Made by a program: the position numbers and the translations under genes
IMG/VR virus record: IMGVR_UViG_3300035520_001075
Coordinates: 32,001-96,000 of that record
Direction: 5' to 3' (one strand)
DNA from: a virus
Taxonomy: Duplodnaviria > Caudoviricetes
Length of the DNA: 64,000 nt
Notes under the pieces: generated by a model
Database searches by the model: none
The model's input: only the letters and a program-made list of their open reading frames with translations
Told to the model about the DNA's origin: nothing
Shown: positions 3,101-41,679 of the stretch, piece by piece
Position numbering within the stretch: position 1 is the first letter of the stretch
Layout of the letters: each line of letters begins with the position of its first letter

Positions 3101-6100
3101 ACTTGCAGCAGAGTAGATTCTTAGCTTAAAATTTAAGGCTACAATATTTGAATTGCTGGAAACTCCTTAGAGCCTAATAAACTACAACATAAAAAGAAAT
3201 TTTAAGTGTGATAGTTTAAAAATTATTAGGATTGGACAATCAGCAGCCAAGCATCGTTAAGATGAAGGTTCAACGGTCATTACGTAGGAATAAGCATTCC
3301 GAAGCGGAGAATTTCTGGAAAGATAAGATATGACCTTTTCTTATAGGAAACTATAAGCCATATTGGAAAGTTATTTAGCGAATAGCTTTAAAAATAAAAG
3401 TTAATGGAAGATTACGATAGAACAGTGGAACTTGTTGAAACAGCACAAGATTCTACTGGTAAATCCTCTGAACAATTTGCAAAATATCAAGATACACTCG
3501 AAAATAAAGTTAATAAATTAAACGTTGCCTGGGAAAAATTAAGGTAGAAATTTGTTAGCTCAGATATATTTAAGGGAGCTATTGAAAGTATTACAAAACT
3601 TGTTGATAAATTAAATAGCTTTAGTATTGCGGATTTTGCAGCATTGGGAACTGTATTTGTTACACTTGGCAATACTGCTGCAGAATCTTTTTTAAATGGA
3701 TTTCGTTCTACTCTAAAAGGAGTCGGACAAATAACAACCATGATGTCAGAAAAGTTTACTTTACAAGCCTTTCCTGAATTTAGTAAAAATTCAAAAGAAA
3801 AATTACAAAAAGAACTTGAAAAAAGTAATAATTGGGTAGAAAGAGCAACATCTAATTTGGAAGCTAATAAAACAGCAAGGTCCGAAAATTATAGTCTTTT
3901 AAATTCTCTGAAACAAAAGTAGGTAAAAAATCTTGAAGAAGTTAAAAATTTGAAAAATTCTCAACTAATAAGTCTCATGCGTGGAGACAGTGATGAGGTA
4001 CTACAAAGAATTGAGAATAGTTTACAAGAAAAACAAAAAATAGGAGAACAAATAGGAGAAGATCTTCAAGCAACAGAACAAGAACAAGAGAAAATAAATT
4101 AGGCTATTGTAAAAGGAAAAAAGGATTTAGCTGAAGCAAAAGCAGACCAAAGTTTTAAGACTCAAAAACTACAAGATTCTGTAGTTGTAGATTCTACAGA
4201 ATTAGCTGAAACTGCAAAAAATTCTTTCGTTACTGCATTTACCACTGGTATTACAGTAGCTTTTGCAACTGAAAATCCTATTAAAGCAGGGCTTTCTGCG
4301 GCAGTGGCAGGGGCAGTAGCTTTCTTGCCTATTATTTTTAAAACAATAAAAACGTTAATGACAAAACAATCTTTGAGTTTGGGTCAAGCAGCTGCAAAAG
4401 CCTTTAATTCAGGATTGGGCCCTTATGCAATTATTGTCGTGGCTGTTGCTGCTGCTATAGCTGCAGTTGTAGCTGGAATAAAAAAATTACAATCAACCAT
4501 GGAAGCCAATTCTATTGGTGGCCGCATTAGTGCTCTTGAAGAAGATATTGATAATGCCACAGAATCTGCGACGAAGTTAAAAGAGGCTTTATCAAAAACA
4601 ACAGAAGAGAAAAAATCATTAGAAGAAATTAAAGAAACTTATAATGAGCTAAAAAATAAGCTAATTTTAACAGAAGAAGAGCAAGAAGAATATAATTCAA
4701 TGGTAGAGACTTTAAAAGAGAGTTATCCAGAATTAATTACTTACTATGATGAACAAAATAATAAAATTACAATTTCCAACTCTTTATTAGACGAACAAAT
4801 AGAAAAGGTTTCGGCATTACAAAAATTAGAATCTCAGCAAGTGTTAGCAGCGGATTATAAAACAGAAGGATTGCAAAATCAATATGATACGTTAAATGAA
4901 ATACTAAGCGGTTATTCTAAGTTTGGCTTTGATGCGACGTGGGCGACAGAAGATGACAATATATTTAAAGAATCTTCTTTTAATACTAACACTATAAGTA
5001 TGATTGATGAAGAAGGCTTATTAGATATTTATAATAAATATCTCAATAAAAGCACACCTGTTGTTTCAATGTCAGCGGAAGATAGGAACGCTGTTATAAA
5101 TGCAATACAATATGCCTTCTCAGGTGATTATGCTTATCTTTCAGGTATTTCAGACAATTATAAAGAAGGAGCACAAGCATTAGCTAATGCAGCAGAATCA
5201 GAAAGAGAAATCATAGATGGATTAAAGAATGACTTTGCGGAACTCTATAGCTATGCTACCGATTATTATAGTACAAACTATTCTGATATGACAGAATCTG
5301 AGCAGGATATACGAGGGGCAATTGCCGCGGCATATATTGACAAGTTAAATGATATTGTTATTTCTGATAGTACCGATATGTAGGACGTATTGACATAGGT
5401 ATCGGAAATTCTTGGAGATTCAGGGATTGTAAATTTAGATTAGTTTGAAAACCAATTTACATCAGCATATGCCAGTCTTAAAAGTGGGTGGAAAGGAGCG
5501 AATACTTTAGCTTAGAACGATGCTTCTGCTAGGTCATTATTAGCTCTTTTGGGTATTACCACAGAACAAGAATATGCTGACCTTGGTATAAAAGATTGGG
5601 GTAATGATGATATTTTAGCTTATATGAATAGTAATTTTATTCCTTTATTATCAGAACAAATAACAGAAGCTTTAGGAGAAGTAGAAATAGATAGTAATGC
5701 ATTATCTGTAGCAAATGAACTTTTTACTGACGTAAACGAGATGTCAGCAGAAGAATATGCAAATGCTAAAAACACTTTATCTGAGGCATTAACCCAATAT
5801 GATGATATTGATATAGATACTGTTTTGGGAGCTCTTTTTGATTAGACTACAATTGATAATGCCGTAGAAAGTTTACAGGCCTATAATAACACGTAGGATT
5901 TTACCATTAGTAATTACACTACAATGGCATCTGCTTTAGCTAACTTACAAGACCGTTTCGGTTCTTTAGATGCATATGCACAAGACTCTTTCCAAGATTA
6001 TATTAATTTTATTCAAGGACAAAATTTATCAAGTGATGTCGCAAATGCATTATTTAATATTGATGTTTCTTCTTTTGATGGACAAACAAGAGAAGAAATA

Positions 6101-9100
6101 AAAGAGGCAATAATTGAACTAGTATCAAATGAAGACCTCGAAGGGGCATTGGGAGAGAAAGAAGCAAAAGCTTTTGCAGAGGGCTATATTAATGAATTAG
6201 AAACAGGAGCTTTGGCGGATTTTAGCATTACTTCTGTTGTTGGTTTTGAATCTGAAATTGATGATATAAAAGAATAGGCTAAAACTATTACAGATTCAAT
6301 GTCTTCTATTACTGATGCAATTACCAATTAGGCGGAAAAAGGATACATTACCGTTAGCAATTATGCTACTTTAGCAGAACAATTAAGCAGTTTAGACTTA
6401 GATGTAGATGATTATGTTTCTGTTAATGATAATGGAGATTATAGTTTAAATGCAGAGGCTTTAAGAGATGCTTATGCAGAACAACTTAATGATAAAGAAA
6501 ACTTAGTTGAATTGGCAAAAGAAGATTTACAAAACGGTATTGATGAATTAGATATTCAAATTCAAATCCTTGAAAGTATGCTCAACGGAGTTAATGCAGA
6601 AGATGCAAAGGGAGAAGCCATTGCTCGAAACAATAGACTTTATGCGGAACAATTAGCATTATAGGCTGGTCAAGACGTTGATACTTATTTAACAAATCAT
6701 AATATAAGTTTATCTGATGCACAAAGTTCGTTAACGACTGAACAAAAGAAAATAATACAAGATCAAATTGATTCCCTGTAGGCTCAAAAAACAGATATGG
6801 AAAATAAAAAGAATAACTTAACTGAGGATGAAGCAGAAAAGATAATATCTCCTTATTTAAATGACCTTTTACGTACATATACTGAGGCTTGGGATGATGG
6901 AGTAGAAAAAGCAGAAGACGCAGAAGATATTGAAGACGCTTTAGAAGCTATTGAAGAAGCAGAGCAAGATGTAATTGATAAAACAAAAGAACTTCAAGAA
7001 GCATATCAGGGCTCAGCTTGGTATGAGAGTGCAGTGGATTAGCTGTATAATTATACTACTGCTTTGGATTATGTTGCTGATAAAATTAGTGATTTTAAAG
7101 ATACTCTTGATGATTTAAGTGCTGATGATAATATTACTGAAAATTTAAATGGATATTTAGAGAATATTAAGAAATATAATACAATTTCAGAAGCAGAGAA
7201 AAAAGTTCTTGAACAAGCTAATCAGTCAATTATTGATGGACTTGACAATACTTTAACTAAAGAATTACAGGCTCTTAGCGAAAAATATAGTGATTATAAG
7301 ATTGATACAAATGTTTCTGATTATTATACTTATGATGAATATAGCGGAACTTATATGGTTAATAGTAATGCACTGGCCGCCGCCAAGATGTCAGATACCA
7401 TTAAGAAAGAAATCGAAACACAAGTTCAGCAGTTAAATAGTAATTTAAGTTCAATAAACGATATAAATGAAAATGTAAAGAAATATGAGTAGGAATTAGA
7501 AGATTTACAAGAAACAGCATTAAACAATCAAGTTGCTCTTGAAGATGAAGTAATTTCAACCTTAAAGCAAAAGTATCAAGAAGAAATTGATAATGCTAAA
7601 GATAAATATCAAGCATTAGAAGATGCTAATGATGAATATCTTGAAGCTTTACAAGATGCAATTCAGAAAGAAAGAGATTTAAGAAGTGAACAGGATAGTT
7701 GGGACGACTTAGCTAAGAAAGAAAAGAAACTGTCTTTAATTTCAAGAGATACTTCTGGGGCAAATCAATCTGATATTCAAAGTTTACAAGATGAAATTGA
7801 TAATGATAGACAAACATTATTAGATGATACTGTCGATAATATTCTTGAAACAATGAAAGAACAATATGAAACACAGAAAGAACAAAATGATACTCAAATA
7901 GAAATTCTTGAAAATCTTCATAGCGACGAAGCAATCACAAAAGAAGCTGTAAGTCTTATCGCAAGTTGGCAAACAACAGATGATATGATATTATGGATGA
8001 CTCAAAATTCAACAGAGTATGAAACTTGGTCTGATTCTAAATATCAGCAAATGGTTGAATCTTGGGAAAAAGAATTCCTAGCAAAACAAGCAGCAGATGA
8101 AATATTATAGACAGATTTATTATCTCAGACTAAGACAGACGCGGAAGAAATTGAACAAACATATGAAGCTTATGACCAAACAGCAACAACTCAGATAACA
8201 ACTGCTATTGGAGACGATATAGATACTGTTTCTACAGAAATTAGTGATGCTAAAAAGGCTTTAGAAGAGGCACAAAAAACATTAATAGAAAAGCAAGAAG
8301 CTTATAATGAATTAATAACTAATATTGATGAAAATGTTGCAGATATAGCAAACGGAAAAACAGCGGATAATGATAATAACGATAATAAAGATAATGATAC
8401 CGTTGCAGACGAAACAGCAGCATATTATAAGGAACAATATGATAAAAATGCTAATAATCCAGCTGCTCAAAGTGCTATAATTTCAACAGCTAAAAATAAT
8501 GGATATAATTTTTCTAATGGATTTTTTTATAAATCGTCTAGTATTTAGAATAATGACGATGATACTTCTAAACTAACAGAAGCCAAGGCATTATATACAC
8601 AATATTTAGCTAATGAAGGTAATGCTAATGCACAAACACAAATTGGTAATTTAATATCTAAAACTGGTTATACTGTTGAACAAATCAAAGAAACATATAA
8701 CAATTCAGGATTATCGTTGATAAATAAAGCAACAGTTTCAAGTGAAGATGCCGTAAAAGAAGGTCAGTGGTATTCTGTAAACACAGGAACAACTAATGAA
8801 TGGACTGAATACGGACAAGTTCTATGTGCAGACACCCAAACAGAGTTAGAACAAATTATACAACTCGGCAGAAAATAGGGCTATCTTGCTAATATAGAAT
8901 TTGCTATGACCCATAAAGGAACCGATGAACCTACATACTTTTTTAAATCAGGCGGCCTTGTTGACTACACTGGTCCAGCATGGGTAGATGGTACAAAAAC
9001 CAAGCCAGAAGCTTTCCTCTCAGCATCAGACACTCAACGTATAGGAGAAGCCGCAGAACTTCTTGCTAATATTCCAATACTCAACTCAACATCAACTTCA

Positions 9101-9265
9101 GCAACCAATCTTGCCACAAATGTTGGAGATACAACAATTGAAGTTCACATTAATATAGAAGAAATCTCATCAGATTACGATGTAGATTCAATGATTGATA
9201 GAGTTAAACAAGACATTGTAGATGTTTCTAATCCAATAGGAACACAAGTAATGTTGTCGAAATAA
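197..9265 (+). CDS. Tape measure protein (5'-partial, spliced, TAG read-through)
   Basis: Exons 197-401, 1703-1720, 1989-1997, 3106-3126 and 3401-9265. The spliced product reads DTALKSVGISLKD..GQFRDLDDVFLELSSKWSTLDRNTQRY-IATTAA-GSR-QQSRFLA-LMEDYDRT. Track ORFs 3644, 4304, 5549, 5924, 6797, 7064, 7853 and 8906 share one frame broken only by TAG. The protein is coiled-coil and Ala-rich, ends GGLVDYTGPAWVDGT...TAA, and lies upstream of Dit. Confidence 0.9.
460..488 (+). promoter_or_regulatory. SigmaA-type promoter for the intron HNH gene
   Basis: TTGACT-17 nt-TATAAT with an extended -10 TG. Same consensus as the - strand early promoters. Confidence 0.8.
537..1424 (+). CDS. Intron-encoded homing endonuclease with two HNH domains and a NUMOD1-like C-terminus
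   Basis: Motifs VHHKDGCPRNNTLDNLEW and INHIDSNRGNNRLSNLE, NUMOD4-like EEWRP..YEVSNMGRIK, C-terminal F.S..EAA. RBS GGAG. No internal TAG. Confidence 0.88.
   Translation: MKMVEGKPVIINGKETQYFLFKNGDLYNENTHRIAQGAINQGYIRFTLEIDGETIGIYKHQLMAQLFIPNPENKPIVHHKDGCPRNNTLDNLEWVSQEENLNKIINPVEHKITEKLTLEELEEEEWRPLQNSKYEVSNMGRIKNLQTGKITFGSRNKNSGYIRWTYNDLNGNRQEIQAHRAVYMVFHPDEKINVINHIDSNRGNNRLSNLENVSQRENVIKSYYQTKTKQTKLTGQYDLEMNLIQVFPSTSEAAKNIGLNNCSNLSRAMKTGGISHGYYWREISKAEYDEFLNKK
1721..1988 (+). mobile_element. Group I intron TMP-I3 (no ORF, 268 nt)
   Basis: P1: exon GCGGCT pairs with GGTCGC. Core AATTGCGGG, AATCCGCAGC, GTTCAACGACTA, AAGATATAGTCT. Terminal G at 1988. Confidence 0.88.
1998..3105 (+). mobile_element. 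Group I intron TMP-I4 with an HNH gene in the P9 region
   Basis: IGS TGCTG-GCGA: P10 TGCTG pairs with 3' exon CAGCA. Core AAATGCTGG, AATCAGCA, GTTCACAGACT, ATTATATAGTC. Terminal G at 3105. Confidence 0.85.
2258..3097 (+). CDS. Intron-encoded double-HNH homing endonuclease with two in-frame TAG codons
   Basis: RBS AAAGGAAGTG precedes ATG 2258, in frame with track ORF 2417. The N-terminus MYKTIMINE*ITEYLIFDDGRLFN..GYRTY*LTVKGK aligns with the N-terminus of the 537..1424 paralogue. Two HNH motifs. Confidence 0.82.
3127..3400 (+). mobile_element. Group I intron TMP-I5 (no ORF, 274 nt)
   Basis: P1: exon TAGCT pairs with GGCTA. P10 TTAA pairs with exon TTAA. R GTTCAACGGTCA and S AAGATATGACCT show a compensated P7. 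Terminal G at 3400. Confidence 0.88.
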
Positions 9266-9320
9266 AGAGAAGATTGAGAGTTCTCTATGAGGACTCTCAT
9301 CTTCCTATAGATGAGGTGAA

Positions 9321-12104
9321 ATGATGAGACAGATAAAGGATTTTGTTGGCTTTAGATTTGGTAATGTCCATTCAAGTGAACTTAATTTATTAGTAGTATC
9401 TTCCAGTGATAGATATGAAAAGAATTTACTTCCAGACCCAACAGATTATACAACTGAAATCCCAGGTTCAGATGGAACTTATTACTTTGGACAAACCTAC
9501 AAAGACAGAACTTTTACTGTTAATGTTGCTTTTGATAGAGTAAGTGAACCAATCTTTAGAAAAATTTCTTAGTTATTTGCTAATGATAAACTTCAAGATT
9601 TAGTCTTCGATGAAATGCCTTTTAAAACTTACAAAGCAAAAATTAAATCTAATCCAGACTTTAAATTCATTTGTTTTACAGATAGAGATACTGGAGAACG
9701 AGTTTATAAAGGAGAAGGAACTTTAGTATTTATTTGCTATTTTCCTTATGCTTTTGGTTTTAATAAGTACGTTGTAAGAGCGGCAGACTTCTATAAGTGT
9801 GCTCAGCCGAAAGACATTATTATTAACAAACTTGAAGATAATCCATATAGAAAAAAGAAAAAGCCAAAGTTTTGGCCTGCTATTATAAAAGACCATTATA
9901 ATGTTGAATATAATATGAGAACTCCTTGGAAGGGCGGCTACCCTACAATAGAACAAGTTCAATGGGGAGAACTTTATTTTAAAGGCCCAGAAGATTCTGA
10001 GAAAAAAATGATTATTGATGTGCGTAATTATTGGAAGAATATCCCAGAATGGCAGGGAACAGCAAAGTTATTAACAACTCCTACTCTTGATTATGACCAA
10101 GAATTGATTTTTGCACCGCAGTTTTCAAAGTGCAAGTTTATTAATATGGACACTGGTTATTATACTGAAAATGATATGATGGGTAGTAGAATTTTAGTTT
10201 ATAATCCAGGTGATTTACCAATTGAATTTGAATTAAAAATGGAAGAGAATAAAAGAACTTTCTGGTCTTCAAGAATGGGCAATGGTTTTAGAATTAGTCG
10301 CTTTAATGTTGAAAGATTATCTATTGAACAAGCAGTAGATTGGACTGGATTAACAACATTAGAACAAGTAGATGATAAACCTTATAAATATGGTAATAGA
10401 TATTTTAAGTTAGACGATAGCGAACCAGATGATACAGAGCTTTTAAAAAATATTGATGAGTATACTAATAAGAATTGGTTGGAAGAAGACATTCTTATGG
10501 AAGAAGGAGATACTCATAATTATGGCTATTATGATAGAGAAGGTAATGAAGTTATTACAGACGTGATAGTAGATGGAAAAGAGGGTAATACTGCTTACAC
10601 AACTCCTAATGGGGCGGCCGCTAAAGAAATTGCATATAATTTACATTTAAAAGAATATCAAGATTCATTATATAATTTTATTGACGAAAAAACCGAATAT
10701 CGTTTATTAAAAGCAGCCCACCCTCATCACACTTATATTGCTGAGCCAATTCCTCGCCAAAAGCTTGGACACTATATCAAATTATTCTATTGGCAGTCAG
10801 AACAGCAGTTTAAAGATAACTCAAAAAAATTAGCAAACCTTTATCCACAGTTAAAGTTTGAAGATGGAATTAAGATTGCAAATAGATATGATGAGTTAAG
10901 AAGTCTTTGTATAAATGAAGATGAAGAATATGAGTTATATTGGGAAACTTTGAAAATGGCCATTCTTGATAAATACAAGGATTGTAATGTTTTTTCTGAG
11001 AAAACTTCTACATATTATGATTCAACTTATACTTATGAAGATTTTGTAGAGAGCTTCTTATATCACCCAATGGAATTTATTACAGTCGATACAGATAAGG
11101 AACTTGATTATGGTCAAGATACTTTAAATATCTATAATTATCCTCAATGGATTACAGAAGATTACTTAGAAATCGACCCATCAGCACTTGCTTATGATGA
11201 GGATTATAGAACTTATAATAAAACCGAAAATATGCCAGATGCACTTTTCCTTGACACAGAAGAAAGAATTCTTTTTGAGAATCAAAATCCAGATGACTTT
11301 TATAAATATAAACCTACTAAAATACTTTACAATGATTCTATTAAAAAAGGAAAATGGTTTAAGTTGCCGCCAGGTTGGAGCTTAATAGCAATTGAACCTA
11401 TTTCTGATGAGGAATATTGGGGTGGAAAACGTTGGTTAGATGCAAGACCTTTTGATTGGGGCTATGGCGGTGATGAGAATCGGAATCCACGAGAAGTTCA
11501 ACAGTTATTTGATGGCGTATATGATTATTGTGTTAATAAATTTCTCAAAAACTCAGAAGATGAGGGAACTTATTATAAAGAAGAAGCTTTTAGTCGAGAT
11601 AACGTAAATACATGGTTGGCAAAAGGCTATAATAATGGACTTTTTGATTTAAACGGTGGAAAGAATTCTCCAGCAGAAAAATCGTATATTAATAATGATA
11701 ATCAGCCAGTGTTAGACATAAATACACTTGATGATGAAGATAGAATGAAGATTAGGAATTGGTTCTTCTATTATAAGGAACAAGCGAAGTCAAAAAATGA
11801 TACGTTTGCTTATCAGCTCTATTGTAAAAGAGAAACACAAGCAGAATACTCTTTCTTAAAATTATTATATCGAGTTTGGAATAAAATTTCCCCTTACTAT
11901 TCTTGGACTGCAGGAAAAGGCGTTTTTGAAGATGGAGAAGATTTGGACGATAGCGGCCGCCCTAAGAGATGTATCAATGCTCATATCTCAGATTGGTGGT
12001 ATTATGCTTGCAACTATATGTGGGCAAATTTCCCTCCTTTGTATTGGGGACTTGCAGATTTATTAAACGGATTACAAATTAAATATGTTCCACTATTTTA
12101 TTAA
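9321..12104 (+). CDS. Distal tail protein (Dit-like) with a large insertion, about 927 aa
   Basis: Track ORFs 9321 and 9615 join through TAG 9570-9572. Dit-like N-terminus (F.FG...S..L, IPGSDG.YY, LVFDEMPFK.Y.AK). Directly follows the tape measure gene. Confidence 0.75.
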
Positions 12105-12115
12105 GAGGTGAGAAA

Positions 12116-15100
12116 ATGAGTGTAGTAAAAAAGGAATATGAGTTAAGCGTTTGGAGCGAAACACTTAATGAAAATGGTATTAAAGAAGAACGCCGCGGCC
12201 CAATTATTGGAGCACACGACATGACTTTTTTAGGAAAGGCAACTTCCGTTAAATTAAAAAGAGAGATTAAAGGAACAAACACTCTTACTTTTCAAATGCC
12301 TTCAAAATATTTTGATTCTAAAATTGGAGAATATGTGCACAATGAATTTTGTGATATAATTTTTAATGAGACTAAGATTAAGTTGTATTATATGGACACT
12401 TGGTTTGAATTTTTTGTAAAGAAAATAACTGAAACTAAGCAATTCAAAGCAATTATGTACGAATATTCTTGTGAAGATAGCTTTATTGATGAATTATCGA
12501 GAACAGGCTATGAAATAGAATTTTCTCAGGATTTAAATAACAGCGTTGAAGAAGCAGGCACTTTTACAGAAGATATTTTAGAAGATAGTATTTGGGATTA
12601 TACACCACAATATAATAGTGGAGATTTTACAGAATATACAGAATAGAGATTTTATAAAATACCATTGTCGTAGTTTGGCGGCAGTATTATTGGTTATCCA
12701 ATTAATTTAGAAATTACTACAGATATGTTGTTAGACTCAAAAGGAAAGCCAAAAACTTATTTGACCAATTACTTAAAAGAAAAAGGCTTAGTTTGGGACA
12801 ATATGTCAGATGCAGAAAAAGAAACTGTATTAAATGATTTATTAACAATTCATAATATTTTTACTAATGAAGATAGATTGCTCCAGTTAGGAGATGACTT
12901 AGCAAGAGAAAGAGAAATTTTCTGGGACGCTTATTATGCTGATAACGGAGTTAGTCTTATAGATGAAAGTAGAAAGGTTGCTCTTAGCGGCGATTATATA
13001 TATGTTCCTTTGGCTGACCTTTCTACTATATCTGGTAGTATTTATGAAGATGCTTATAGTGCAGTAGAAGAACTTGCAAAATATGGAAAATATGGAGATA
13101 CAGATAGAGGCTATGCTTTACAGCCTTCCTCTGACAATCCAAAAGATTTTGTTTAGTTTATTTTTCTCCAAGATGGAGACGAGTATCATATTGATGAGGC
13201 TAATGTTTTAGCAGACAATGATTATCACTATGTAATCCCGATTGAAGATTGGAACGATTTATTAAAGGCTCAACTTCCATCAAAAGGCGGCCTTATTTAC
13301 TGGACACAATCAAAGCCAACGACTTCTTCTGGTGAAGAGGCGGTCAAATTAACTACAAAATATACGGTTGAAGAAGTTGAAGGAGAGAATATTGGTTATA
13401 CTACAGATGCAAGACCAGAATCTTCAACGATTGATGACTTTATTTGGTATCCAGTTTATTATGAGGGCTTCTTAGAATCTATTAATGATACTGAGGTCTC
13501 AGAGGCAAGAAAAATATCAATTACTGATAGAACGGAATATAATAAAGAGGCAGACAGTTATATTACTGTTTATAATAATAAATCAAGTGATTATAGGAAA
13601 TTATATACAGAAGAAGAATTAACAGAACAAATTTCTGATAATACGAATGAGTTTAGGGTTTGCTCAAAGTTAGATACAAGACAAATTCTTCCAACTTTAG
13701 CAAGAAACATTGTTGATAATGGAACAAGCATTACTGAAACTACTGGTTGGGAGGCAAAAACACAGAATAGAAATAGCGATACTACAACTGGAACAGGCTC
13801 TTACTATTCATTACTTGAAGTTAATTTAAAGAGTACCTTGCAAACTAATGCAAGTGAAAGTAGTACAACAGTTGAGGATTTAGATGAATTAGAAGGCACT
13901 ATAAATGATGAAAGTGTTAGTGATTATTATCTTGAAATTCTTAGCCCTTGTATTAATAAATGCGAAGATTTTTCTTTAGAAGGACAAGTTGAAAAAGATT
14001 ATGTTTTGAATTTCGGTTTCGTAAGCCAAGAGACTTCCATTGAAAAAGGCAAAGTCTATGCTATGAGAATGAGAACTGGAAGCACTGAAACAACTGGAGT
14101 AAAGATTACTTCAAGAGCAGGAAATGGTTCATCAAGTTATTCAACAAATCTTGATACTATTATTAATGATTATGAAACTGCCTATGACGATTATTATACA
14201 ATAATAACTGCTTTTTCAAAGTCAACGGCGGCCGAAGCAAAAACATATATGGGTAGTGTTTATAAGGATGATATGGAGGATTCTATTAATGCCTTTTATG
14301 ATTTAATTACAAAATGGCCGAAGGATAGCGATACTCAAAAGACAAATAAGATAAATTTAGTAGATTCTATTTTAAAAGCTATCTTATTTGGCGGCACAGC
14401 AAAGATGTGGGTAAATAGCACTTCTACAAGCAGTGGGAGCACTCTTGCTACAACTTCAATAAGCCTAAAGGGCTTAATTCCAGCATATGATTCAAGCAAA
14501 ACGAACGTTTATCAAAAATTATCAAACATTGCTGTTAAACCAACGACATCTTCTGACGGAACAATATCTTATACAAAATCAGATACTAACTATCTAAAAT
14601 ATTATTTATATACCCATCTATCTTCAGCGGCATCAGCTTCTGTTAGTGCTTATTCTCTTTCATCAGTATCTCAATTAACTAAAACTATAGTAAAGCAATG
14701 GAAAACAACTTATATTGCTTATAATAAAGAATTAGTTAAGCGTTTGAATGAGGACTTAGATAAGCTTGTTATTGGAGAAGGTTCAATTGATTTACAAGGA
14801 AATTATAGCGTAGATGGTACTGAAAGCAGTGGTAGTGATACTATAAACAAAGGGAGTGGACAGTATATTTCATTTAAGGACATTTTTAATGAAGCTTATT
14901 ACTATGTTCCTTCAAAAGATTCTGATACTTCAAAATCCTTTATTGAGCCTATGTATCATAATAAATCAAATGGTAAATGGACTTGGAGTACAAAAGCAGG
15001 AGCAACTTCTGTAGAAGATGAAGCATTTTTCTTATTTAAAGCAAATCAAAACATTGCTAATCCATATATCGGAATTAAAGTTGAGTCTGGCCCGCTTAAA

Positions 15101-15508
15101 ATAGTTTTTGACTCAATTACTCAGAATACCTATTCATCTACAATTACAGATGGTATTCAAATTAATACTGCAACAAGTATAACAACAACAGCAGTAGAAC
15201 CTAAATATTGCGACGGAGATTCGATTAAATTAGTTCCTATTACGTCATATACTACTTCAGAAACTTTTAGAAATGCAATTCACTATGATTACACTACAGA
15301 AACTTTCACAAGTATTCCAACAAGTTTTTCATGGAATGATGATTATCTTTTAAGCTCTTCTGGAGCGTGGACAGGGACGACTTCTACAACTTCTCCATTG
15401 GTTGATGGAACTTTTCTTAAGAATACAACTAATTCTGGTAGCATTGCCTATTTAGTTTTTGTAAATGGAGAATGTCAAGGAATTATTTACTTAGAAGGAA
15501 CAGAATAA
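12116..15508 (+). CDS. Tail/baseplate hub (Tal-like) protein, N-terminal part, about 1130 aa
   Basis: ORFs 12116, 12725 and 13838 share one frame joined by TAG codons (12644, 12671, 13154). The N-terminus KLKREIKGTNTLTFQM..KIKL..WFEFFVKKI resembles prophage tail proteins. Ends in TAA. Confidence 0.7.
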
Positions 15509-15522
15509 GGAGGTGAGATTAA

Positions 15523-18500
15523 ATGAGTATTATTCTTGTTGAATAGTCAAATATTGGTAGTTATACTACTACCACGACAACTCCACCAATTAGAATAAAT
15601 AAGAACAATGGTAAAATAACAAGTGTCCAATATTTATCATATAATCGTAATGTTGCAGGAGACGTAAAAACATTAACAGTTAGTAGTGATAGTTCTTGGT
15701 GTGCCTTTTTTATACAAAGTGGAGCTAAATATACTTCTGGTAATGTTCCAACAGTTTTTAATCAAAGTAATTTATGGCCGTTAGTACAAGCATCAGCTAA
15801 TTCTAATTTAGTATATTTAAATTCACATGAAAATAATAAAGCTTTGGCAATAACTCCATCTCCTACTGCGGCCGAGGCATTATCAAAATTTGTTTGGACT
15901 TTTAGAAGCTGCATTACTCCTTTTATAAATAACCGATTCTTTTTAAACAGACCATCTCAATATACGATATGGGGCGTTGTTTGTCTTTTTGGAGTTCCTT
16001 TTCTTTTTGCAGCCGATAGTTTTAGTGATTTAATTAGAGAAGATAAATTTACAATAAATAATACTACTGTTGATACTACTTCCTCATCTTATAGTAATTT
16101 ATGGAACTTAGAATTGTCAACAGGTTTCTATACAGGTTCAGGTTATCAAGTATATAATTCTTCTACTAAAACAAGAAGTTTTACAAATAAAACGACCTAT
16201 TATATAGGAACAAAAGAATCTTCTGATTCTACTGGCACTTATTTATCTTGCAGTGCAATAACTCAAACGATATCTACAATTTCAAGCGGCGGCTGGACTA
16301 AATTTTATTTATTAAAGCGAGCAACAGGAAAAACCAGCGGTGCATATTATCAAGAAGTTGATAAATTTGGTAGTTTAAAAAATAGTTCAACAAACACAGA
16401 AACAGGGGCAACAACATCTACGCCAACAACCACTCAAAATACAGTTGTGCTATCTGACCCTTATAGTAAGGCGGCAAATGTTTCCAGTAGTTATATATCT
16501 AATTTTTCTAATTATAAAATCCATTTTATTCCTTGCAATAATAAAAGTGCAAAAGTTAGTGGTTTAAGAATTGATTTTCTTAATGTTTCTGGAACAACCA
16601 GCGAAATTTTATACCCTTATGTAAAGACAGAAACGACTATTGTTGATGAAGAGGAAATGTTTGGTCAAATAGATAAAGCAATTTCAAGTTCAATATCAAA
16701 TTTAAAAAATCAAAAAGATAGTAGAACATACTTAAATTATATTCTAAAAATTGAATCAAAAAGCGGCAATAAATCATTAACGCTTTCAGATTATTTTAAA
16801 GATGATTCTAATGTGGGAAAATATAATTTTAATTACTATGGAATTAATGGAACAACATATTCTACTTTAAAATCTGGAATTACTTTTTCTCAATTCCTTT
16901 CTGATAATCAAATTAAAATTAGAAATTTAACATAGAGAGATTATAGTGCATCTTTATCATTGGAGCAAGAAAGAAAATCTTTAAATCTCTATAGCTTGGA
17001 AATTTTTGAAGCTTATACAAGAGGACATGATTTTATTCAGGAAAATTATACCACTGTTCGTGCAGAAGAAATGAATCCGAATGATTCATCAGAAACTTCA
17101 AAAATAATGAGTTTTGATGATAACTACTTTACTTATAAATATACTGGAAGAGATATTGATATTTTCTGCGGCAATGGTAATGTTCAGAACTTTAAAAAGC
17201 AATTACCAAATGGTACATCAATAACTGACCCAGTTTATTGTGCACTGATTCATAGCTCTGATTTATTATTAGAATCAGACGTGACCCTAGGAGAAAGCTA
17301 TGGAATTAGAAACTATTTTATTGAGGCTTTAAAATACCCTAAATGGGAAGACGATACCGCAGATATTAAAACGATTAAATTGGATTCAAATAGCAAGCCA
17401 CAATATCTATATAAAGATAGCTTTAAAATAACAGATTATATTTCTGATGAAGGTCTTGACGGCACTTTGTACACTGACGATGATATAACCGTTTTAACTT
17501 CTAAGATTGATTTAACACAATGTGAATATTATCAGCCTGAAAAAGCAAACTATAGTAATAGATGGTGTGATTGCTCTTATAAGACTGGCGGCGAAGAAGT
17601 TTCCACAGAATGTATTTATTAGAAGAGCGGCTATTGTCCTTATCGTTTTGAAACTGAAAAGCATCCAAGACGAATTAGAACATTAGCACAATCAAAATCT
17701 AATCGCTTTAATTTAATTCAAGAGCTTTGTAAAGTTTTTGAATTCTATCCTTATTTCTATATTGAACACGAAAAGAATGGTAAAATTAAGTTAGATGAAA
17801 ACGGCAATATGAAAAAGCACGTTTTCTATATGACTGAGAAAGGTAGTGAGAAATATTCTGGTTTTAGATATGAGAAAAATTTATCAAGTATTACAAGGAC
17901 AACAGACTCATCTTCAATAACAACAAAATTATATGTTGAAAGTAATGATTCTTCTACTTCTTCAACAGGCTTGTGTTCAATACAAACTGCAGAAGATAAT
18001 CTTGGAAAGACATCTTACATATTAGACTTCTCTTATTATACTGAAAAAGGAATGTTGAATGCAGAACAAACTCAAAGAGATATCTATGGAATTGAATCTG
18101 GCGACTTTGCTTTCTTACCAAGAATCGGGGCATATAATGATTAGTATGATGATTATTCTAATTTAATTATTACTATGACTGGCGAAGAGCTAACTGATAT
18201 GGAAGCACAAATTGAAGTTTCTGTAGCTGGAATTACAAGTGCTTTGGAAGAACGACAGAAAGTTGCTCAGACAATGTATCAGTATAAAGTTCAAGCACAG
18301 CAGACGGCCGCCGCAAGTTCATTAACAGATTTATCTTCTTATACAACCTCAGATACTTATAAAAATTATGTAATAAAATATCGAGAACAAGCAACAATAC
18401 TTTGGGGATTAATTGAGACCTTATTTTTCTCTAATAACTACTTTTCATATCCTGTTAAGTTCTATGATAACAAAGGTAAAACAAGTTATAAGTTCTATAC

Positions 18501-21153
18501 TTTTGATTATGATTCTTGCCAAATGATTTCTACTAATGTTGGAAGTAGTAATAGATTAACATGGGTTGCTCATGAACTTAAAACTTATAAGAGTAAGTAT
18601 TGTAAGGGAGAAATGTTCTGGAGATTAGTTTTAGAAGGGTTTGATGATGGAACTGATAAAGAAGATAGCGATACAGATTTACAATTTGCAAATTGGCAAG
18701 ACTTTAAAGAAAAAATAGTTGATACTAAACTTTATGAAGTAAATGGAACAATGGGTAAATATAAAAGTCTTTATAATGAAGTTCAATATTGGAAAAGAGA
18801 ACGAGCAAAAATATTGAATAAAATTAATGACTTAAGCGAGCAATTCTATAAAAAGTACGAGCCTTATATTAAAGAAGGAACATTTAGTGATAGCAACTAT
18901 TTAACTGATAATGAATACTATTGGGCAGGAGTACAAGTTCTCGATGATTCTTGTAAACCGCAAGTTAGCTATAATATTTCTGTAATTGATATAAGTCCTT
19001 TAGAAGAGTATGCCGACGATTATACTTTTGAATTAGCAGATACGACTTATATAGAAGATATAGACTTCTTTGGAATTAATTCTAAAACAGGATTACCAAA
19101 TAGAGAAAAAGTTTTAATTAGTGCTATTGATTACGATTTAGACCAACCAAAAAATAATTCAATTACTGTACAAAATTATACCTCTCAATTTGAAGATTTA
19201 TTCTCATCAATCACAGCATCAGTACAATCTTTAAGTTTCAACGAGAATATTTATAAGAGGGCTTCTAATTTTACAGCGAAACAATATATTGAAACAGATA
19301 GTCTACAAGATACTTTAGATATAGGAGATTTAACTCTTTTAGATACAGCTAAAGATAATATTGTGCTTGATGAAAACGGTGCGGAAGGTAATAACATTAA
19401 TAATTCTTCAAGTCAGTATAAATTATCTGGAGAAGGACTTTACTTCTCAACGGACGGCGGCACAACATGGGATTACGGTGTTGGGCCAGGTGGCATTAAT
19501 TTAGATTATGCTAAATTTGGTTCTTTAGATTCTTCTAAAATTCAAATTATGGATAGTGATTATATCTATTTTCTTTGGGATAAAGATGGAATTAATGCTT
19601 ATCGAGACCCGTCAACAAGTACAGAAGGATTAGTTGATTTTGCAAGATTTAATCGCTATGGATTAAGCTTAATTGAGAATAATAATATTCGCTTAAGAGC
19701 AGGTTATGAATATAGGTCTAATGCTACAGGAAATAATATTACTGGGGCTTATGATAAAGAATTAGATTTATCAGACCAAAATATTGGTTTTTATCTTTAT
19801 AACGATAGCGGCCAGCCTATTTTTAAAACAGAAACACGCTCTTCATATGCAGATAGTGAAGATACAGATTATACTGCAAGATTATCTTTAACTGGAGAAA
19901 TTTTCGTGACGAATAAAGTTTTAGATAGTGCAGATTTAAGTTCTTCAAGTGGTTCAACTGTTGCACAGTTAAGTTGCCAATATATACTGAATTATGAAAG
20001 TACTTATACATACTCAGAAGTGGACGAAACAAAAGCAATGAAATATATGTTGCAAAATGACTCTGATTATGTTTTAGTTGATGGAGGAGGAAATCTATAT
20101 TCACAAATAACAGTAAATAGTAGTTCTACAACAACTTATACTCTTTACTATAAATATAAATTTAATACTGTTGCTGAGGGAGAAGTAGATTATATATTCC
20201 TTTATAATTACAATGGCGTATTAATTACTGCTACTGATGAGACTAAAATTAGTGCTGAAAAAGTTTATGGTATTATTAATGGTACAGCCAGTGATGATTC
20301 AATTAATGTTTCGTATAGTTCTTCAAGTAGTAAGAAAAGAAACTATTGCGTTCAGAGCGGCGATAATTTAGGTAAAATGGCAGTGTCTACTACTGGAGAA
20401 AATTTAATTCTTAGTGGTATCTATGAATCGGCAACATTAGATATTACTAATAGCAATTTAACTCCAAAAACCATTACCTATTTAGCAAACGGAGTTTCTA
20501 CTTCAACAGAGTTATATGTCTACACAAGCGGCAATCAAACAACATACTGGAAAAATTTAACTTCTGACTATGGTCTTACATCTACTACTTCAAATAGCGA
20601 TTACTATGCCTCTGAAATTGGCATTTATATTAATAATAAAAAAGCCCTCCACGCAGGAGAAAGCGGCTATGAAGATAGAACAGATACAGGTGATTAGAAC
20701 ATTGCGTCAGACGCAGATGCTACAGAAAAAATGAATACGATTCTCGCTGGTGCAGAAAGAAGTTTCATGATTTCAACTGGCGGTGTTGTGGATAATGCTT
20801 TACAATGCAATAACGTATTATCAGTATTAAAGAACGGAGTACTGTATATGGGCGGAACAATTACAGATTACTATGGAAAGCCGCTGAACATTTCAAGTTT
20901 ATCCTATATGCCAGATGAAGTAAGAATTGCTAATCCTTCAATTGTAATGTCCAATACTGGACAAATGTGGTGTGATTGGAGTAGATTCTATAATACTTAT
21001 GTTGATGATGATGGAGTAAGACAATATACACTTTATTCACTAACAGACTTAGTTAATGAAATTAATAGCAATCTTAGTAATCTTAGTAGTGGAACTACTT
21101 CTGATTCAAGTAGTACTGTTGCAGGCTGGTATATTCCTGACCCAGCAGGCTAA
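15523..21153 (+). CDS. Large tail/adhesion protein carrying the rest of the Tal-like hub domain, about 1876 aa
   Basis: RBS GGAGGTG precedes ATG 15523. ORFs 15844, 16960, 17809, 18175 and 20731 share one frame joined by TAG (15544, 16933, 17620, 18142, 20695). Motifs SNRFNLIQEL, GFRYEKNLSSITRT and PQVSYNISVID. Ser/Thr-rich inserts. Confidence 0.72.
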
Positions 21154-21166
21154 TAAATTAAAAAAT

Positions 21167-21195
21167 AAAATGGGTACATATTGTGCCCATTTTTT
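21167..21195 (+). terminator. Intrinsic terminator
   Basis: AAAATGGGTAC-ATATT-GTGCCCATTTT followed by a T-tract. Confidence 0.6.
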
Positions 21196-21210
21196 ATAGA
21201 GGTGAATTTT

Positions 21211-22317
21211 ATGGCTTATTTTTATTATCCATTGGAGAATTATGTTCAAGGAAAATCTGGTGCTTATTATAATGGAGCAAAGACCTATGATGGGCACGGC
21301 ATTGGAAAATTAGATTTTCTCGCAAGTCGAGGAGACCCAGTATATAGCATGACAGATGGAACCGTGACGCACGCAGGAAAAGCGAATTCTGGCTATTAGG
21401 CAATTGTTATTGAAGCAACTGGCTATGCTGTATCTCCAATATATATTCATTACTGGCACACAGAGAATTATCAATTTGAAGTAGGATAGACAGTTAAACA
21501 GGGTGATTTAATAGCTTATGTTGGAGACGATGATGTCTCTGGACAACATTTGCACGTTGACTTTAGAAATGCAAGTATGCAGAAAGAGGAAAAAAACTTT
21601 ATAGGACCACAATTAAGTAGTTATACAGCTGAACAAAGCGAGGCTATTGAATTTTGGAAAGGGCAAGCAACATCTGCAAATGATTATCTTGGTTATTGCT
21701 GGGAAGTCTTTGCAACACCAGCACAAAAAATGTCTGGTGGCAATGGAGTTTTAAATATTAATAAAGATATTGATACTTATACTTATCTCCAACGAGCAGC
21801 AGATATATTGGGTAATGAATTTACAGATGCTAATATTATCGCTGGAATTTTAGGAAATTTTTGGCAAGAAAGCAAAGGAAATCCTTTTGCTTTGAGCCAG
21901 TCAGGCTATTATGGATTATATCAAACTAATGATAGTAATTTTATTCAAATAATGAGCAATAATGGCTTATTAAAATATTTTAATGGAACAGATACTCCTA
22001 AAGATGAACATAAGAAAAAATGCGTTGACTTAACAATGAATTATTTAATGAGCAATTGGAATGGCAGTTCTAACTATCCGAGTCAAGCAAAAAATGGTAA
22101 ATTGGTTTCTACAGAAAATATGACAGAGGCGGCCGCACAAGCAGAGCTTTTTGCAGTAATGATAGAGAGATGTGTCGGTGGCTCAGATAGCGTTCTATGT
22201 GCAAAGGTATAGGATTATATGAAGAAGTATTACAATGGAAAAATATATAGCTATCAAAATTTGAAGGAAAGAAGAGATGCTGCGGATTGCTTCATAAATG
22301 GAACAGCTCCAGCATAA
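21211..22317 (+). CDS. Cell-wall hydrolase: M23 peptidase plus phage tail lysozyme-like domain, 368 aa
   Basis: ORFs 21181 and 21550 join via TAG at 21397, 21487 and 22210. M23 motifs H....LD, VG*TVKQGDLIAYVG and HLH. Lysozyme-like motif IAGILGNFWQES.GNP..GYYGLYQ. Confidence 0.8.
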
Positions 22318-22335
22318 TAAGGAGGTTGAATTTAA

Positions 22336-22713
22336 ATGCTATTAAAAAGAGATAAGGCTTTAGAGGTTCAAAAATTTTTTAACTTAATAAAAAATAAAAA
22401 ATTCAGCATTCATACTCAATATAAATTAATTAAAATAAAAAAAGCTTTAGAAGAAGAACAAAATATCTATCAAGAACAAATAAAACTTAACTGTTCTCAA
22501 TATTTTGAAACAGATGAGCAAGGTTCTCCAATAATCAATGAGCAAGGCGGCTATAAGATAAAAAGTAATAAAATGAATGAGTGCTATCTTGTTTTAGATG
22601 AAATAAATAAATGTGAAGTTCAACTTCCAGACATTTATTTCTCCTTAGAAGAATTAGAAGAATTAGACCTAACTTTCGAGGAACTTGAAGTTCTCAACCC
22701 ATTCATAAAATAA
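22336..22713 (+). CDS. Hypothetical phage protein
   Basis: RBS GGAGG, 125-aa ORF. Confidence 0.7.
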   Translation: MLLKRDKALEVQKFFNLIKNKKFSIHTQYKLIKIKKALEEEQNIYQEQIKLNCSQYFETDEQGSPIINEQGGYKIKSNKMNECYLVLDEINKCEVQLPDIYFSLEELEELDLTFEELEVLNPFIK

Positions 22714-22739
22714 TTTGTTAATTCTAAATAAAATAAAAG

Positions 22740-22797
22740 AAATGACGTATCGAAGTCTTTGTTTAAAACAGAGAATTTTTTCGATACGTCATTTTTT
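22740..22797 (+). terminator. Long hairpin with T-tract (terminator or structured leader)
   Basis: AAATGACGTATCGAA ... TTCGATACGTCATTT forms a 15-bp perfect stem with an inner stem-loop, followed by T's. Confidence 0.55.
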
Positions 22798-22860
22798 ATT
22801 TACTAAGTTTTCGCTTAATTTCCACTTTAAAAATGTAAGATGAAACGAGGTGATGAGAAA

Positions 22861-23292
22861 ATGGCTTATGCATATAATTCTAATAGCCAATTGCTGCAAA
22901 ATCAGAACAATCCTCAGCAAAATTATAATAATGCTCAAATGTTCCAACAGCAGCAAAATATTCAACCATTATTTCCTCAGCCGCAAGGTAATGTTTACAA
23001 TATTAATTCAACTCTTGAAGTTGCAAATGTTCCTGTTGGTGCTGGCATTTCAGTAGCTTTATGTTTAAATGAGGGAGTAATGTATATCAAATCAATGCAA
23101 AACGGCAATCCTCTATTTTGGGTTTATAAGATAGAGCCTTATAATGATTCTCCAAAAAATGAGGCGGCCGCACAAGAAGAAGCAACATCTCAATATCCTA
23201 ATTACGATGAACGCTTCTTGAAAATTGAAAAACAAATTGATGAAATTCAAACCAATCTTAAAAATCAAAAAGGAGGGGAATTTCAATTATGA
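22861..23292 (+). CDS. Hypothetical Gln/Asn-rich protein, gene 1 of the five-gene module
   Basis: RBS GAGGTG precedes ATG 22861. Q/N/P-rich N-terminus, coiled-coil C-terminus. Confidence 0.75.
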   Translation: MAYAYNSNSQLLQNQNNPQQNYNNAQMFQQQQNIQPLFPQPQGNVYNINSTLEVANVPVGAGISVALCLNEGVMYIKSMQNGNPLFWVYKIEPYNDSPKNEAAAQEEATSQYPNYDERFLKIEKQIDEIQTNLKNQKGGEFQL

Positions 23293-23528
23293 TGAATATG
23301 AATCCAATGCAGTTAATTAGTTTGGTTAAAAACAGGAATCCAGAATAGTTTGTCAGGGAAATGGTTAAAAATAGTAATATCAACAATCCCATGATTAATG
23401 AGCTAATCGGATATGCAGAAAAAGGAGATTTAAATAATATTAATAAAATAGCTGAAAACTATTTCGGACAGCAAGGGTTAAATTTTGGTCAGGAATTTAA
23501 CTCTTTTATGTCTATGATAAATAAATGA
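23289..23528 (+). CDS. Small hypothetical protein (79 aa, one TAG), gene 2 of the module; missed by the ORF track
   Basis: ATGA overlap with the upstream stop and RBS AGGAGG. Reads MMNMNPMQLISLVKNRNPE*FVREM...MSMINK then TGA. Confidence 0.75.
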
Positions 23529-25235: not shown

Positions 25236-25270
25236 AAAGAGAGTAGAAAATTAATTCTACTCTCTTTTTT
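25236..25270. terminator. Bidirectional terminator where the two gene blocks converge
   Basis: AAAAGAGAGTAGAA-AATTAA-TTCTACTCTCTTTTT, flanked by A and T tracts. Confidence 0.8.
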
Positions 25271-25994
25271 AGAACTCAATTATTTGTTGTGAAGAATTCT
25301 CATAAACTGCCCATCTTCCTATTAGTATTGCATCTGCAGTATCATTATCAACGCTAATATCATAATACTTTTTAACTTTAAGTTGTGCATTTACTTTCTT
25401 ATCGTTTCTTGTTTTACCTTTAATTTCATTATAAGCCCTCCAAGTCGCTGAAGAAACTACTTTATAAGGCATTCCAATTTCATAAAGATAATTTTTAAGA
25501 ACTCCTTGTAAATGAGCAAGTTTTTTAAAAGTAATAACTCCTTCTGAATTCTCTCCAAATTTTTGAAGTTGAATATCTTCAAGTATAACTAAATCAGGGC
25601 CATATTTTTCTATTTGAGAAATAAACCAGTATTTAGTCTAAGCAATTCTTTCTGTACTGCGGCTTCCGTTAGAACTCCATTTACCATGCCCAATTAAATT
25701 TCCGTCTTCAAACAAAGACCAGCCGCTTGTAATAGAAGCTTGGTCAAAAGCAAGAATTCTAAAGCCATTTTTCTTAGAGGGAGTATGAACTCCTTGAAAG
25801 TATGGATTGGTTTTACAAGTTGGACACTGATAATTTTTTCTACGAAATTTTTCTAAAGAACAGAAACAAATATGACCTTCTGGGCATTTTATTTCCAAAT
25901 CTGATTTTAAGTTAGAATATTCGGTTGACAGTAATTGCCAACCGTTTTTTTCTACCTCTTCTCTTATCTCTTTTATATCAATTTTCTTTCCCAA
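25269..25994 (-). CDS. ruvC: RuvC-like Holliday junction resolvase with an N-terminal Zn-binding domain (one TAG)
   Basis: ORFs 25638..25994 and 25269..25472 are in frame across TAG 25640-25638. Motifs ILAFDQASITSGW, PDLVILEDIQ and DNDTADAILIG. N-terminal CPEGH and CPTC. Confidence 0.82.
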
Positions 25995-33868: not shown

Positions 33869-33899
33869 AATTTCCTCCTTTTCCTTATTTTCTATATTT

Positions 33900-33928
33900 A
33901 TTATATCATAATTTAAAAGAAAAGTCAA
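33900..33928 (-). promoter_or_regulatory. SigmaA-type promoter of dnaE
   Basis: TTGACT-17-TATAAT with TG. 27 bp are identical to the promoter at 35529-35555. Confidence 0.8.
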
Positions 33929-35494: not shown

Positions 35495-35526
35495 TTTAAA
35501 ATTTTCCTTTCTTATCTATTATTAAT

Positions 35527-35570
35527 ACTATATCATAATTTAAAAGAAAAGTCAAGACAAAATCTTGACT
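35527..35570 (-). promoter_or_regulatory. Terminator hairpin fused to a promoter (TTGACT-17-TATAGT)
   Basis: On the - strand AGTCAAGA-TTTTG-TCTTGACT-TTT. The 3' arm of the stem is the -35 box. Confidence 0.7.
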
Positions 35571-35578
35571 ATTCTCTT

Positions 35579-35734: not shown

Positions 35735-35738
35735 AATA

Positions 35739-35927: not shown

Positions 35928-36044
35928 AATATTTTCTCTCCTTTTTTTCTTATTTACTATAATAATTATAGCATAATTTATTTAAAATGTAAAATCTTAT
36001 GATTAAGATAAAAAAATTACGTTCTATTTAGTATTTTGCATATT

Positions 36045-36509: not shown

Positions 36510-36559
36510 TATCCTCCTTAAATCTGTTTATAATATATTTTAATATTTTTTGAATAAAA

Positions 36560-38904: not shown

Positions 38905-38922
38905 TTTAAATTATCTCTCCTC

Positions 38923-41675: not shown

Positions 41676-41679
41676 ATTC

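Follow-up and report, generated by a model that had tools for sequence, protein, structure and literature searches.

Reassignment of the stop codon TAG to glutamine (Gln) in late genes has been described for gut phages across many clades, including large phages associated with Firmicutes (Borges et al. 2021, preprint, doi 10.1101/2021.08.26.457843), and proteomic proof of the code-15 reassignment has been provided for crAss-like phages (Peters et al. 2022, PMC9523058). Suppressor tRNAs were undetected in about 60% of the TAG-recoded genomes, for which the existence of non-canonical tRNAs was guessed; within the large Agate clade, TGA-recoded members were described, and two TAG-recoded genomes were reported to carry release factor 2 (RF2) (Borges et al. 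2021, doi 10.1101/2021.08.26.457843). In phAss-1, a human-gut siphovirus-like phage of the proposed Phassvirus group with a genome of ~136 kb, TAG occurs in 41 open reading frames (ORFs), including those of the large terminase (TerL) and the tape-measure protein. The phage reads TAG as Gln and encodes no aminoacyl-tRNA synthetase, Clostridia are predicted as hosts, three ordinary tRNA-Sup-CTA genes and 36 tRNAs are present, and the three published Phassvirus genomes share 82.7 to 86.4% nucleotide identity (Babkin et al. 2023, PMC10607447). Here, we describe in-frame TAG codons in the tail and lysis genes of a 64,000-nucleotide stretch (bases 32001 to 96000, referred to as the window) of the virus contig IMGVR_UViG_3300035520_001075, together with the interrupted tRNA gene elsewhere on this contig that probably supplies their decoding.

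Comparison with the published phages revealed both common and distinct features. As in the phages of Borges et al., TAG appears to encode Gln, recoding is biased toward structural and lysis genes, close relatives with the standard code exist, and homing-endonuclease genes contain recoded stops. Agreement with the Agate phages is confined to a genome size in the range listed for large clades and to the predicted host phylum Bacillota; in contrast to the two Agate genomes with RF2, no release-factor match was obtained here. Unlike the genomes with undetected suppressors, this one contains an insert-bearing, non-canonical suppressor gene. Its TerL is 30.5% identical to that of phAss-1 at the protein level, which makes it a distant relative outside Phassvirus, and two recognizable tRNAs and a split one compare with the 36 tRNAs of phAss-1. 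The crAss-like and Lak phages, which the sequence-only reading (made from the letters of the window without database searches) had named for comparison, share the reassignment and the late-gene logic but represent a different virus lineage. Taken together, the sequence data analyzed below point, with a probability of roughly 0.85, to a complete 157-kb siphovirus that uses translation table 15 with TAG as Gln and whose host is probably a gut member of the Bacillota.

Under table 11, the plus-strand block at 3.4 to 23.5 kb of the window falls into pieces, and long ORFs emerge once TAG is treated as a sense codon. Between window positions 3404 and 23528, eight plus-strand ORFs (6626 codons) contain 31 in-frame TAG codons, corresponding to 10% of the Gln-type codons of the region, and not a single internal TAA or TGA. 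The TAG-bearing genes are the following (window coordinates).

3404..9265, plus strand: tape-measure protein, large 3' exon; 1953 sense codons, 18 in-frame TAG, no internal TAA or TGA, terminator TAA
9321..12104, plus strand: distal tail protein (Dit; PF05709 1.6e-11, phrog_33); 1 in-frame TAG at 9570
12116..15508, plus strand: large tail protein of 1130 aa; 3 in-frame TAG at 12644, 12671 and 13154
15523..21153, plus strand: large tail protein of 1876 aa; 5 in-frame TAG
21181..22317, plus strand: lysin with M23 peptidase (PF01551 1.1e-14) and phage tail lysozyme/SLT (PF18013 7.7e-08) domains; 3 in-frame TAG
23289..23528, plus strand: small ORF of 79 aa with no family match found; one in-frame TAG within NPE*FV

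The sequence-only reading had described 3401-9265 as a frame broken only by TAG, at least 15 times, and had noted the same pattern in the other five genes; the counts above bear out both statements. The other two frames of 3404-9265 contain 71 and 114 TAA and 15 and 133 TGA codons. Based on base composition, a random run of 1953 codons would be free of TAA and TGA with a probability of ~1e-57, and all 18 stops would be TAG with a probability of ~8e-12. Across the whole genome, taking TAG as sense raised the ORF density from 0.78 to 0.87, in line with the coding-density comparison that the sequence-only reading had proposed, and taking TGA as sense yielded almost no gain. Genome-wide, ~110 to 130 in-frame TAG codons were counted in otherwise intact genes, the number varying with the ORF length cut-off.

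The fragmented appearance of the genes under table 11, and the public gene calls, which hold a 441-aa terminase fragment from this genome, would be expected if the TAG codons were true stops that result from gene decay, sequencing errors or deliberately truncated products. This explanation is refuted at the sequence level. The 6626 codons are free of TAA and TGA although the other frames are full of them, and homology runs on across the TAG codons. The same pattern recurs in five related complete genomes. Furthermore, four contigs of other IMG/VR records, 98 to 99% identical to the phage, preserve 51 of 53 TAG codons and have CAG in place of the other two; since the codons are kept in near-identical contigs of separate records, they are not assembly errors.

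The amino acid encoded by TAG was assessed first of all in the large terminase gene (genome 3536-5362), which contains three in-frame TAG codons and has many homologues at 47 to 72% identity. The TAG columns were read from a MAFFT alignment with as many as 120 homologues. At residue 92, Gln was found in 78 of 79 sequences; residue 155 is Gln in 63 of 88 (Glu in 21), and residue 150 falls into a variable column. About one-third of the terminase homologues are N-terminally truncated gene calls, which is taken as a sign that those phages are recoded too.

For a comparison at the codon level, six related genomes (including G003 and G008; the phage's own genome is G000) were fetched whole, and each TAG-sense ORF was aligned to their DNA, which covered 79 TAG sites. 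The aligned codons were Gln in 64 cases (CAA 52, CAG 12), TAG in 34, Glu in 29, Lys in 26, Leu in 16 and Ser in 13, so that Gln is the commonest residue at these sites, as the sequence-only reading had supposed. An empirical likelihood, calculated with substitution profiles derived from these alignments, was best for Gln, with Glu, Lys and Ser 129, 140 and 182 log units worse; kinship of the compared genomes inflates these figures, and their direction is unambiguous. The spectrum at TAG sites (Q 27%, E 12%, K 11%) resembles that of genuine Gln codons (Q 36%, K 12%, E 12%). Conversely, TAG codons of the relatives occur at 6% of the Gln sites of this phage, compared with 0.7% of its Lys sites and <1% of the sites of any other residue. 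Informative sites in the window are 9570 (Q, Q, TAG, Q, N, Q in the relatives), 13154 (Q, Q, Q, Q, TAG, Q), 17620 in the 1876-aa tail protein (TAG, Q, TAG, Q, Q, Q) and 12644 (Q, Q, E, E, E, E); at 18142 in the 1876-aa tail protein, L, K, TAG, TAG, TAG and K were found. These alignments show that TAG and the codons CAA and CAG substitute for one another in evolution. The assignment of TAG as a sense codon, with Gln as by far the best candidate, can thus be considered well supported by the codon comparisons, and the sequence-only reading, which had called TAG a sense codon and probably Gln, agrees with the terminase columns, the 79-site comparison, the likelihood and the near-identical contigs.

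Several observations weigh against this assignment. Many single TAG sites, chiefly in the tape-measure gene, lie in poorly conserved, uninformative columns. The three TAG columns of the lysin in remote homologues (150 representatives) are mostly G in one case, D (64) together with Q (35) in another, and mixed in the third. Of the two motifs that the sequence-only reading had quoted as Gln positions, VG*TVKQGD (21481) and NPE*FV (23337), both exist, but they align to Asp and Glu in relatives, with Glu in four relatives at the NPE*FV site. The suppressor tRNA described below has a long variable arm and G73, and its charging identity rests on the codon comparison and not on the tRNA. A long variable arm and G73 are features used by bacterial SerRS. 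A different residue could be envisaged: Glu, if a Gln-type tRNA were charged by a non-discriminating GluRS without amidation; Ser, in view of the variable arm and G73; or Lys, which together with Glu is next commonest at TAG sites. The likelihoods and the near match to the spectrum of real Gln codons, the Gln of terminase residue 92, the change of TAG only to CAG among near-identical strains, and a U1:A72 pair in all eight suppressors of the clade argue against all three, and we regard this explanation as very improbable. Ser, suggested by the tRNA, was rejected on its likelihood.

The distribution of TAG follows the functional blocks of the genome. Per 1000 codons, TAG occurs 4.1 times in the packaging, tail and lysis block, 1.9 times in the right-hand plus-strand block and 0.76 times in the minus-strand block. 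It is nearly absent from replication genes and absent from the RNA-repair genes. The TAG codons of the minus-strand block are mostly artefacts of N-terminal ORF extension. The relevant features of this block are the following (window coordinates).

28745..60996, minus strand: replication and nucleotide-metabolism block, almost without in-frame TAG; DNA polymerase III alpha, DnaB-like helicase, PhoH, gyrase A and B, NrdD and DNA ligase (Pfam)
25269..25994, minus strand: gene with a genuine TAG at codon 119, across which homology runs; relatives have CAA, CAA, TTA, TAG, AAA
27792..28730, minus strand: gene with a TAG at codon 32, across which relatives align
58130..58606, minus strand: gene with a TAG at codon 127, across which relatives align with GAA, GAA, CAA, GAA, AAG

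All genes of the TAG-sense ORF set terminate in TAA or TGA, as had been stated from the letters alone for the genes checked on both strands. No convincing TAG terminator was found, the sole candidate under table 11 being window position 56869 in nrdD. The product of this gene (window 56869-58044, minus strand) matches only positions 1-265 of the 562-residue Pfam profile, and the TAG, which sits at the point of truncation, may belong to an intervening sequence. The gene for DNA polymerase III alpha (window 28745-33928, minus strand) is found in two ORFs, with the PHP, NTPase and finger domains in one and HHH_6 in the next. Both genes are probably split by intervening sequences.

No tRNA was found within the 64-kb window, and the whole genome yielded no match to the release factor (PF00472), GlnRS/GluRS or RtcB families; the sequence-only reading had likewise seen no suppressor tRNA or release factor in the window. 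Apart from a tRNA-Gln(UUG), standard tRNA searches of the genome returned nothing but two odd tRNA-like genes. The only tRNA-CUA was recovered by ARAGORN with introns allowed, at genome 121450-121589, 25 kb past the window, with a plain tRNA-Gln(UUG) (genome 121319-121393) 56 nt upstream of it. A whole-genome search for tRNA-CUA, release factor and GlnRS, as the sequence-only reading had proposed, thus uncovered a suppressor candidate that standard finders miss, and neither of the two proteins.

The tRNA-CUA gene has a perfect 7-bp acceptor stem with U1:A72, G2:C71 and G3:C70, followed by G73 and an encoded CCA, as well as a D arm, a T arm, a long variable arm and a 5-bp anticodon stem. Its anticodon loop is interrupted, reading C, a 46-nt insert and UCUAAA, which places the insert between C32 and U33. 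Plain ARAGORN called the gene when the insert was deleted and called nothing when it was present. Four recoded relatives possess ordinary tRNA-CUA genes with U1:A72 and the loop CUCUAAA. G003, the sole other recoded relative without an ordinary suppressor, carries a tRNA-CUA gene that is interrupted at this position by an insert of 51 nt. The same type of insert (47 nt, between C32 and U33) was also detected in tRNA(UAA) genes of two kinds, in the following locations.

G007 (another phage contig), 21781-21914, minus strand: insert-bearing tRNA(UAA) gene
L279, L287, L292, L305, L319, L322, L364 and L369: eight further IMG/VR contigs with insert-bearing tRNA(UAA) genes

Because tRNA(UAA) genes bear it too, the insert is not tied to suppressors. 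One relative's split tRNA is contained in contigs labelled human gut metagenome. A G003-type contig (L394) holds, at 429-553, a split tRNA-CUA without encoded CCA and, directly 3' of it at 554-621, a weak match to a hepatitis delta virus (HDV)-like ribozyme (RF02682, 29.5 bits, below the cut-off of 44).

All four independent versions of the insert have the same layout, consisting of a 7-bp helix, an 11- to 16-nt linker, a 5-bp helix, a 7-nt loop GGCAG(U/A)A and an ACCA end. The two helices are 98.5% paired, with double compensatory changes in 8 of their 12 pairs, compared with ~38% pairing in slid controls. The 5' junction abuts the 7-bp helix, and the 3' junction lies within a 10-nt single strand. 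The insert has the predicted shape of a tRNA acceptor/T-arm minihelix ending in ACCA. This reading is supported by a layout equal to that of the tRNA-like end of the two-piece permuted transfer-messenger RNA (tmRNA) of the alpha type (RF01849, Rfam alignment), with which it shares the 5-bp T stem, the 7-nt acceptor strand and ACCA, the T loop there being GGC(A/G)GUA (consensus GGCgGUA). The permuted tmRNA gene is processed by host enzymes at its tRNA-like ends. In contrast to permuted tmRNA, the insert lacks G3:U70 (Ala identity) and an mRNA-like part and sits in the anticodon loop of a tRNA. Three contigs that had been considered insert variants (L270, L375 and L390) were rejected as permuted tmRNA genes (RF01849, 209 bits for L375) and dropped from the family. 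These genes of the alpha type, located in viral or metagenome contigs at L375 297-594 (minus strand) and at the contig end of L390/L270, carry the T loop GGCAGUA and ACCA.

Other classes of intervening sequence were considered and rejected. A group I intron has a catalytic core of ~200 nt or more, compared with the 46 to 51 nt of the insert, and no RF00028 match was obtained with the same library that found true group I introns elsewhere. Theta (minimal HDV-like) ribozymes have been described 3' of phage suppressor tRNAs and never within them, in a text in which introns are unmentioned (Kienbeck et al. 2024, PMC10879173). Like them, the insert is a small structured RNA attached to a phage tRNA-Sup(CUA) that may control maturation; unlike them, it lies inside the anticodon loop, has another loop sequence and gave no Rfam ribozyme match at E values up to 1. 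An HDV-like double pseudoknot, judged by eye, was dropped as well, since no model matched and the loop sequence differs. Inspection of sequence and fold at the junctions, made without a splicing-endonuclease search, revealed no bulge-helix-bulge of the kind expected for an archaeal or eukaryal protein-spliced intron. When 14 related genomes were searched at the DNA level for the split tRNA, all matches were insignificant, and a structure-aware search was needed. The pattern GGGGCAGWACC-N-ACCAT, which is too loose, had 119 matches in IMG/VR and none within a tRNA. Within a literature search of limited reach, no published description of a minihelix insert in the anticodon loop of a phage tRNA was found.

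The insert-bearing gene is probably the functional suppressor. It could also be a dead gene, the TAG codons being read by a suppressor of the host or of a co-infecting phage or by the near-cognate tRNA-Gln(UUG). Maturation of the split tRNA is something that we infer, a plain tRNA-Gln(UUG) is encoded next to it, and recoding of this phage is light (TAG makes up 7.5% of its Gln-type codons compared with 15 to 31% in recoded relatives), so that weaker suppression might suffice; moreover, suppressors were detected in only ~40% of TAG-recoded phages (Borges et al., doi 10.1101/2021.08.26.457843). However, several lineages have kept both exons and insert, with compensatory changes, and separate contigs hold identical copies; the split form is found exactly in the two recoded genomes without a plain suppressor. 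A tRNA-Gln(UUG) that reached UAG by wobbling at the first position would also read UAA, the main terminator here, and 18 TAG codons in one gene of 1953 codons demand efficient decoding. A dead gene therefore appears unlikely, and a functional split suppressor is the preferred reading.

Two genes located 2 to 3 kb downstream of the split suppressor encode a possible repair system. The first encodes an Rnl1-family RNA ligase (PF09511, 7.3e-14, 52.6 bits, cut-off 28.3), and the second encodes a 301-aa polynucleotide kinase fused to an HD phosphoesterase (PNK-HD; AAA_33 1.1e-21, HD 1.4e-07). Neither contains TAG, and near-consensus sigma-70-like promoter matches precede both. The predicted products have the composition of a heal-and-seal tRNA repair pair. 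In phage T4, Pnkp and Rnl1 repair breaks in the anticodon loop by healing and sealing. As in T4, the genes for the Rnl1-family ligase and the 5'-kinase/phosphoesterase are neighbours and adjoin tRNA genes; unlike T4 Pnkp, the phosphoesterase is of the HD-domain and not of the acid-phosphatase type. The proposed junction lies between positions 32 and 33, compared with 33 and 34 in the T4 system, and a role of the pair in removing the insert is conjecture.

These components can be arranged into a speculative model, which we consider possible but rather doubtful, in which the code switch is gated by a minihelix tRNA intron located between C32 and U33. The host presumably uses the standard code, so that early genes would be translated at once and the TAG-bearing late genes would wait for an active phage amber suppressor. 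The tRNA-CUA, with Gln-type U1:A72 and G73, is the only candidate; after removal of the insert, its loop would read C directly followed by UCUAAA. Since the phage has no GlnRS, GluRS or release-factor match, host enzymes would have to attach Gln to the suppressor. RNase P or another tRNA-end enzyme of the host might cut the 5' side of the minihelix and a second, unspecified nuclease might cut after ACCA, whereupon the early, TAG-free PNK-HD would heal and Rnl1 would seal the halves of the anticodon loop. Maturation of the suppressor would thereby act as a timer for the code switch.

The following points count against the model. The Rnl1 and PNK-HD genes are present in all six relatives, including phages with intact suppressors and the standard-code genome G008; because relatives without split tRNAs carry them too, they are permissive but not diagnostic for splicing. 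Alternatively, the two enzymes could mend tRNAs damaged by anticodon nucleases of the host, or heal the tRNA ends that HDV-like ribozymes on the 3' side leave behind. We know of no nuclease that cuts precisely after ACCA. In addition, three TAG-bearing genes lie inside the "early" minus-strand block, so that the early/late split is not absolute.

Further genes surround the suppressor. Directly 3' of it, a GIY-YIG endonuclease gene (genome 121617-122276) has a TAG at codon 4, and its own expression would depend on suppression. A tRNA-like gene at genome 122968-123035 (48.9 bits on the Rfam tRNA model) has an anticodon arm cut to a stem of ~4 bp and a 4-nt loop and cannot decode because of this shortening. 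Just upstream of the Rnl1 gene, at genome 123400-123473, lies a tRNA with the 6-nt anticodon loop AUUUAU (called as Lys or stop by ARAGORN) and an encoded CCA.

The N-terminal part of the tape-measure gene is located upstream of the window, at genome 26914-28446 (PhageMin_Tail, phrog_167). Six Rfam matches to group I introns were obtained (54 to 75 bits, cut-off 50), as follows.

Window 1399-1693, plus strand: group I intron
Window 1710-1982, plus strand: group I intron
Window 44648-44876, minus strand: group I intron
Genome 31261-31572: group I intron
Genome 31598-31854: group I intron
Genome 16249-16579: group I intron

Four of the six matches separate the two parts of the tape-measure gene, in support of the word "exon" chosen for 3401-9265 in the sequence-only reading. 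Within this intron region, two plus-strand HNH_3/NUMOD homing-endonuclease ORFs were observed at window 537-1424 and 2258-3097; the TAG-sense form of the latter has two in-frame TAG codons.

The source contig is a single IMG/VR virus contig of 157,483 bp with a G+C content of 31%, direct terminal repeats and a CheckV completeness of 100%. The 99-nt terminal overlap of the assembly (genome 1-99 and 157385-157483) holds a 53-nt tandem repeat. Profile searches revealed a siphovirus tail module. The large terminase is of the SPbeta YonF type and groups with those of Geobacillus E3, Tsamsa and Lactococcus 949-type phages of Bacillota. Its best match among isolates is Geobacillus virus E3 (39% identity), followed by Enterococcus, Brevibacillus, Tsamsa-like Bacillus and 949-like Lactococcus phages. 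Neither the organism tally as listed nor the 30 listed terminase matches included a crAss or Lak record. A Lak or crAss-like lineage was therefore rejected, since the terminase matches are phages of Bacillus, Lactococcus, Enterococcus and Clostridium and the tail module is that of a siphovirus; the earlier comparison with these phages stands for the reassignment and fails for the lineage, which is that of the SPbeta/Geobacillus-E3 terminases. IMG/VR holds >500 relatives of the phage. In five of the six fetched relatives, taking TAG as sense raised the ORF density by 0.15 to 0.24, and the remaining one, G008, uses the standard code. When the 1130-aa tail protein was used as a query for close relatives, a single near-identical contig was found, and the lysin as a protein-database query returned one real homologue.

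Recoding itself has already been published (Borges et al. 2021; Babkin et al. 2023; Peters et al. 2022), and the interrupted suppressor is the unusual part. The well-documented phenomenon is extended here to SPbeta/E3-like gut siphoviruses, a large clade whose genomes need table-15 annotation, as public calls hold fragments such as the terminase piece mentioned above. If the insert is removed in infected cells, it would provide a concrete mechanism for timing the translation of late genes. The insert would then define a new class of intervening sequences in the tRNAs of bacterial viruses. Under the full model, tRNA splicing in a bacterial system would depend on proteins, and the "missing suppressor" problem of recoded phages would be explained in part.

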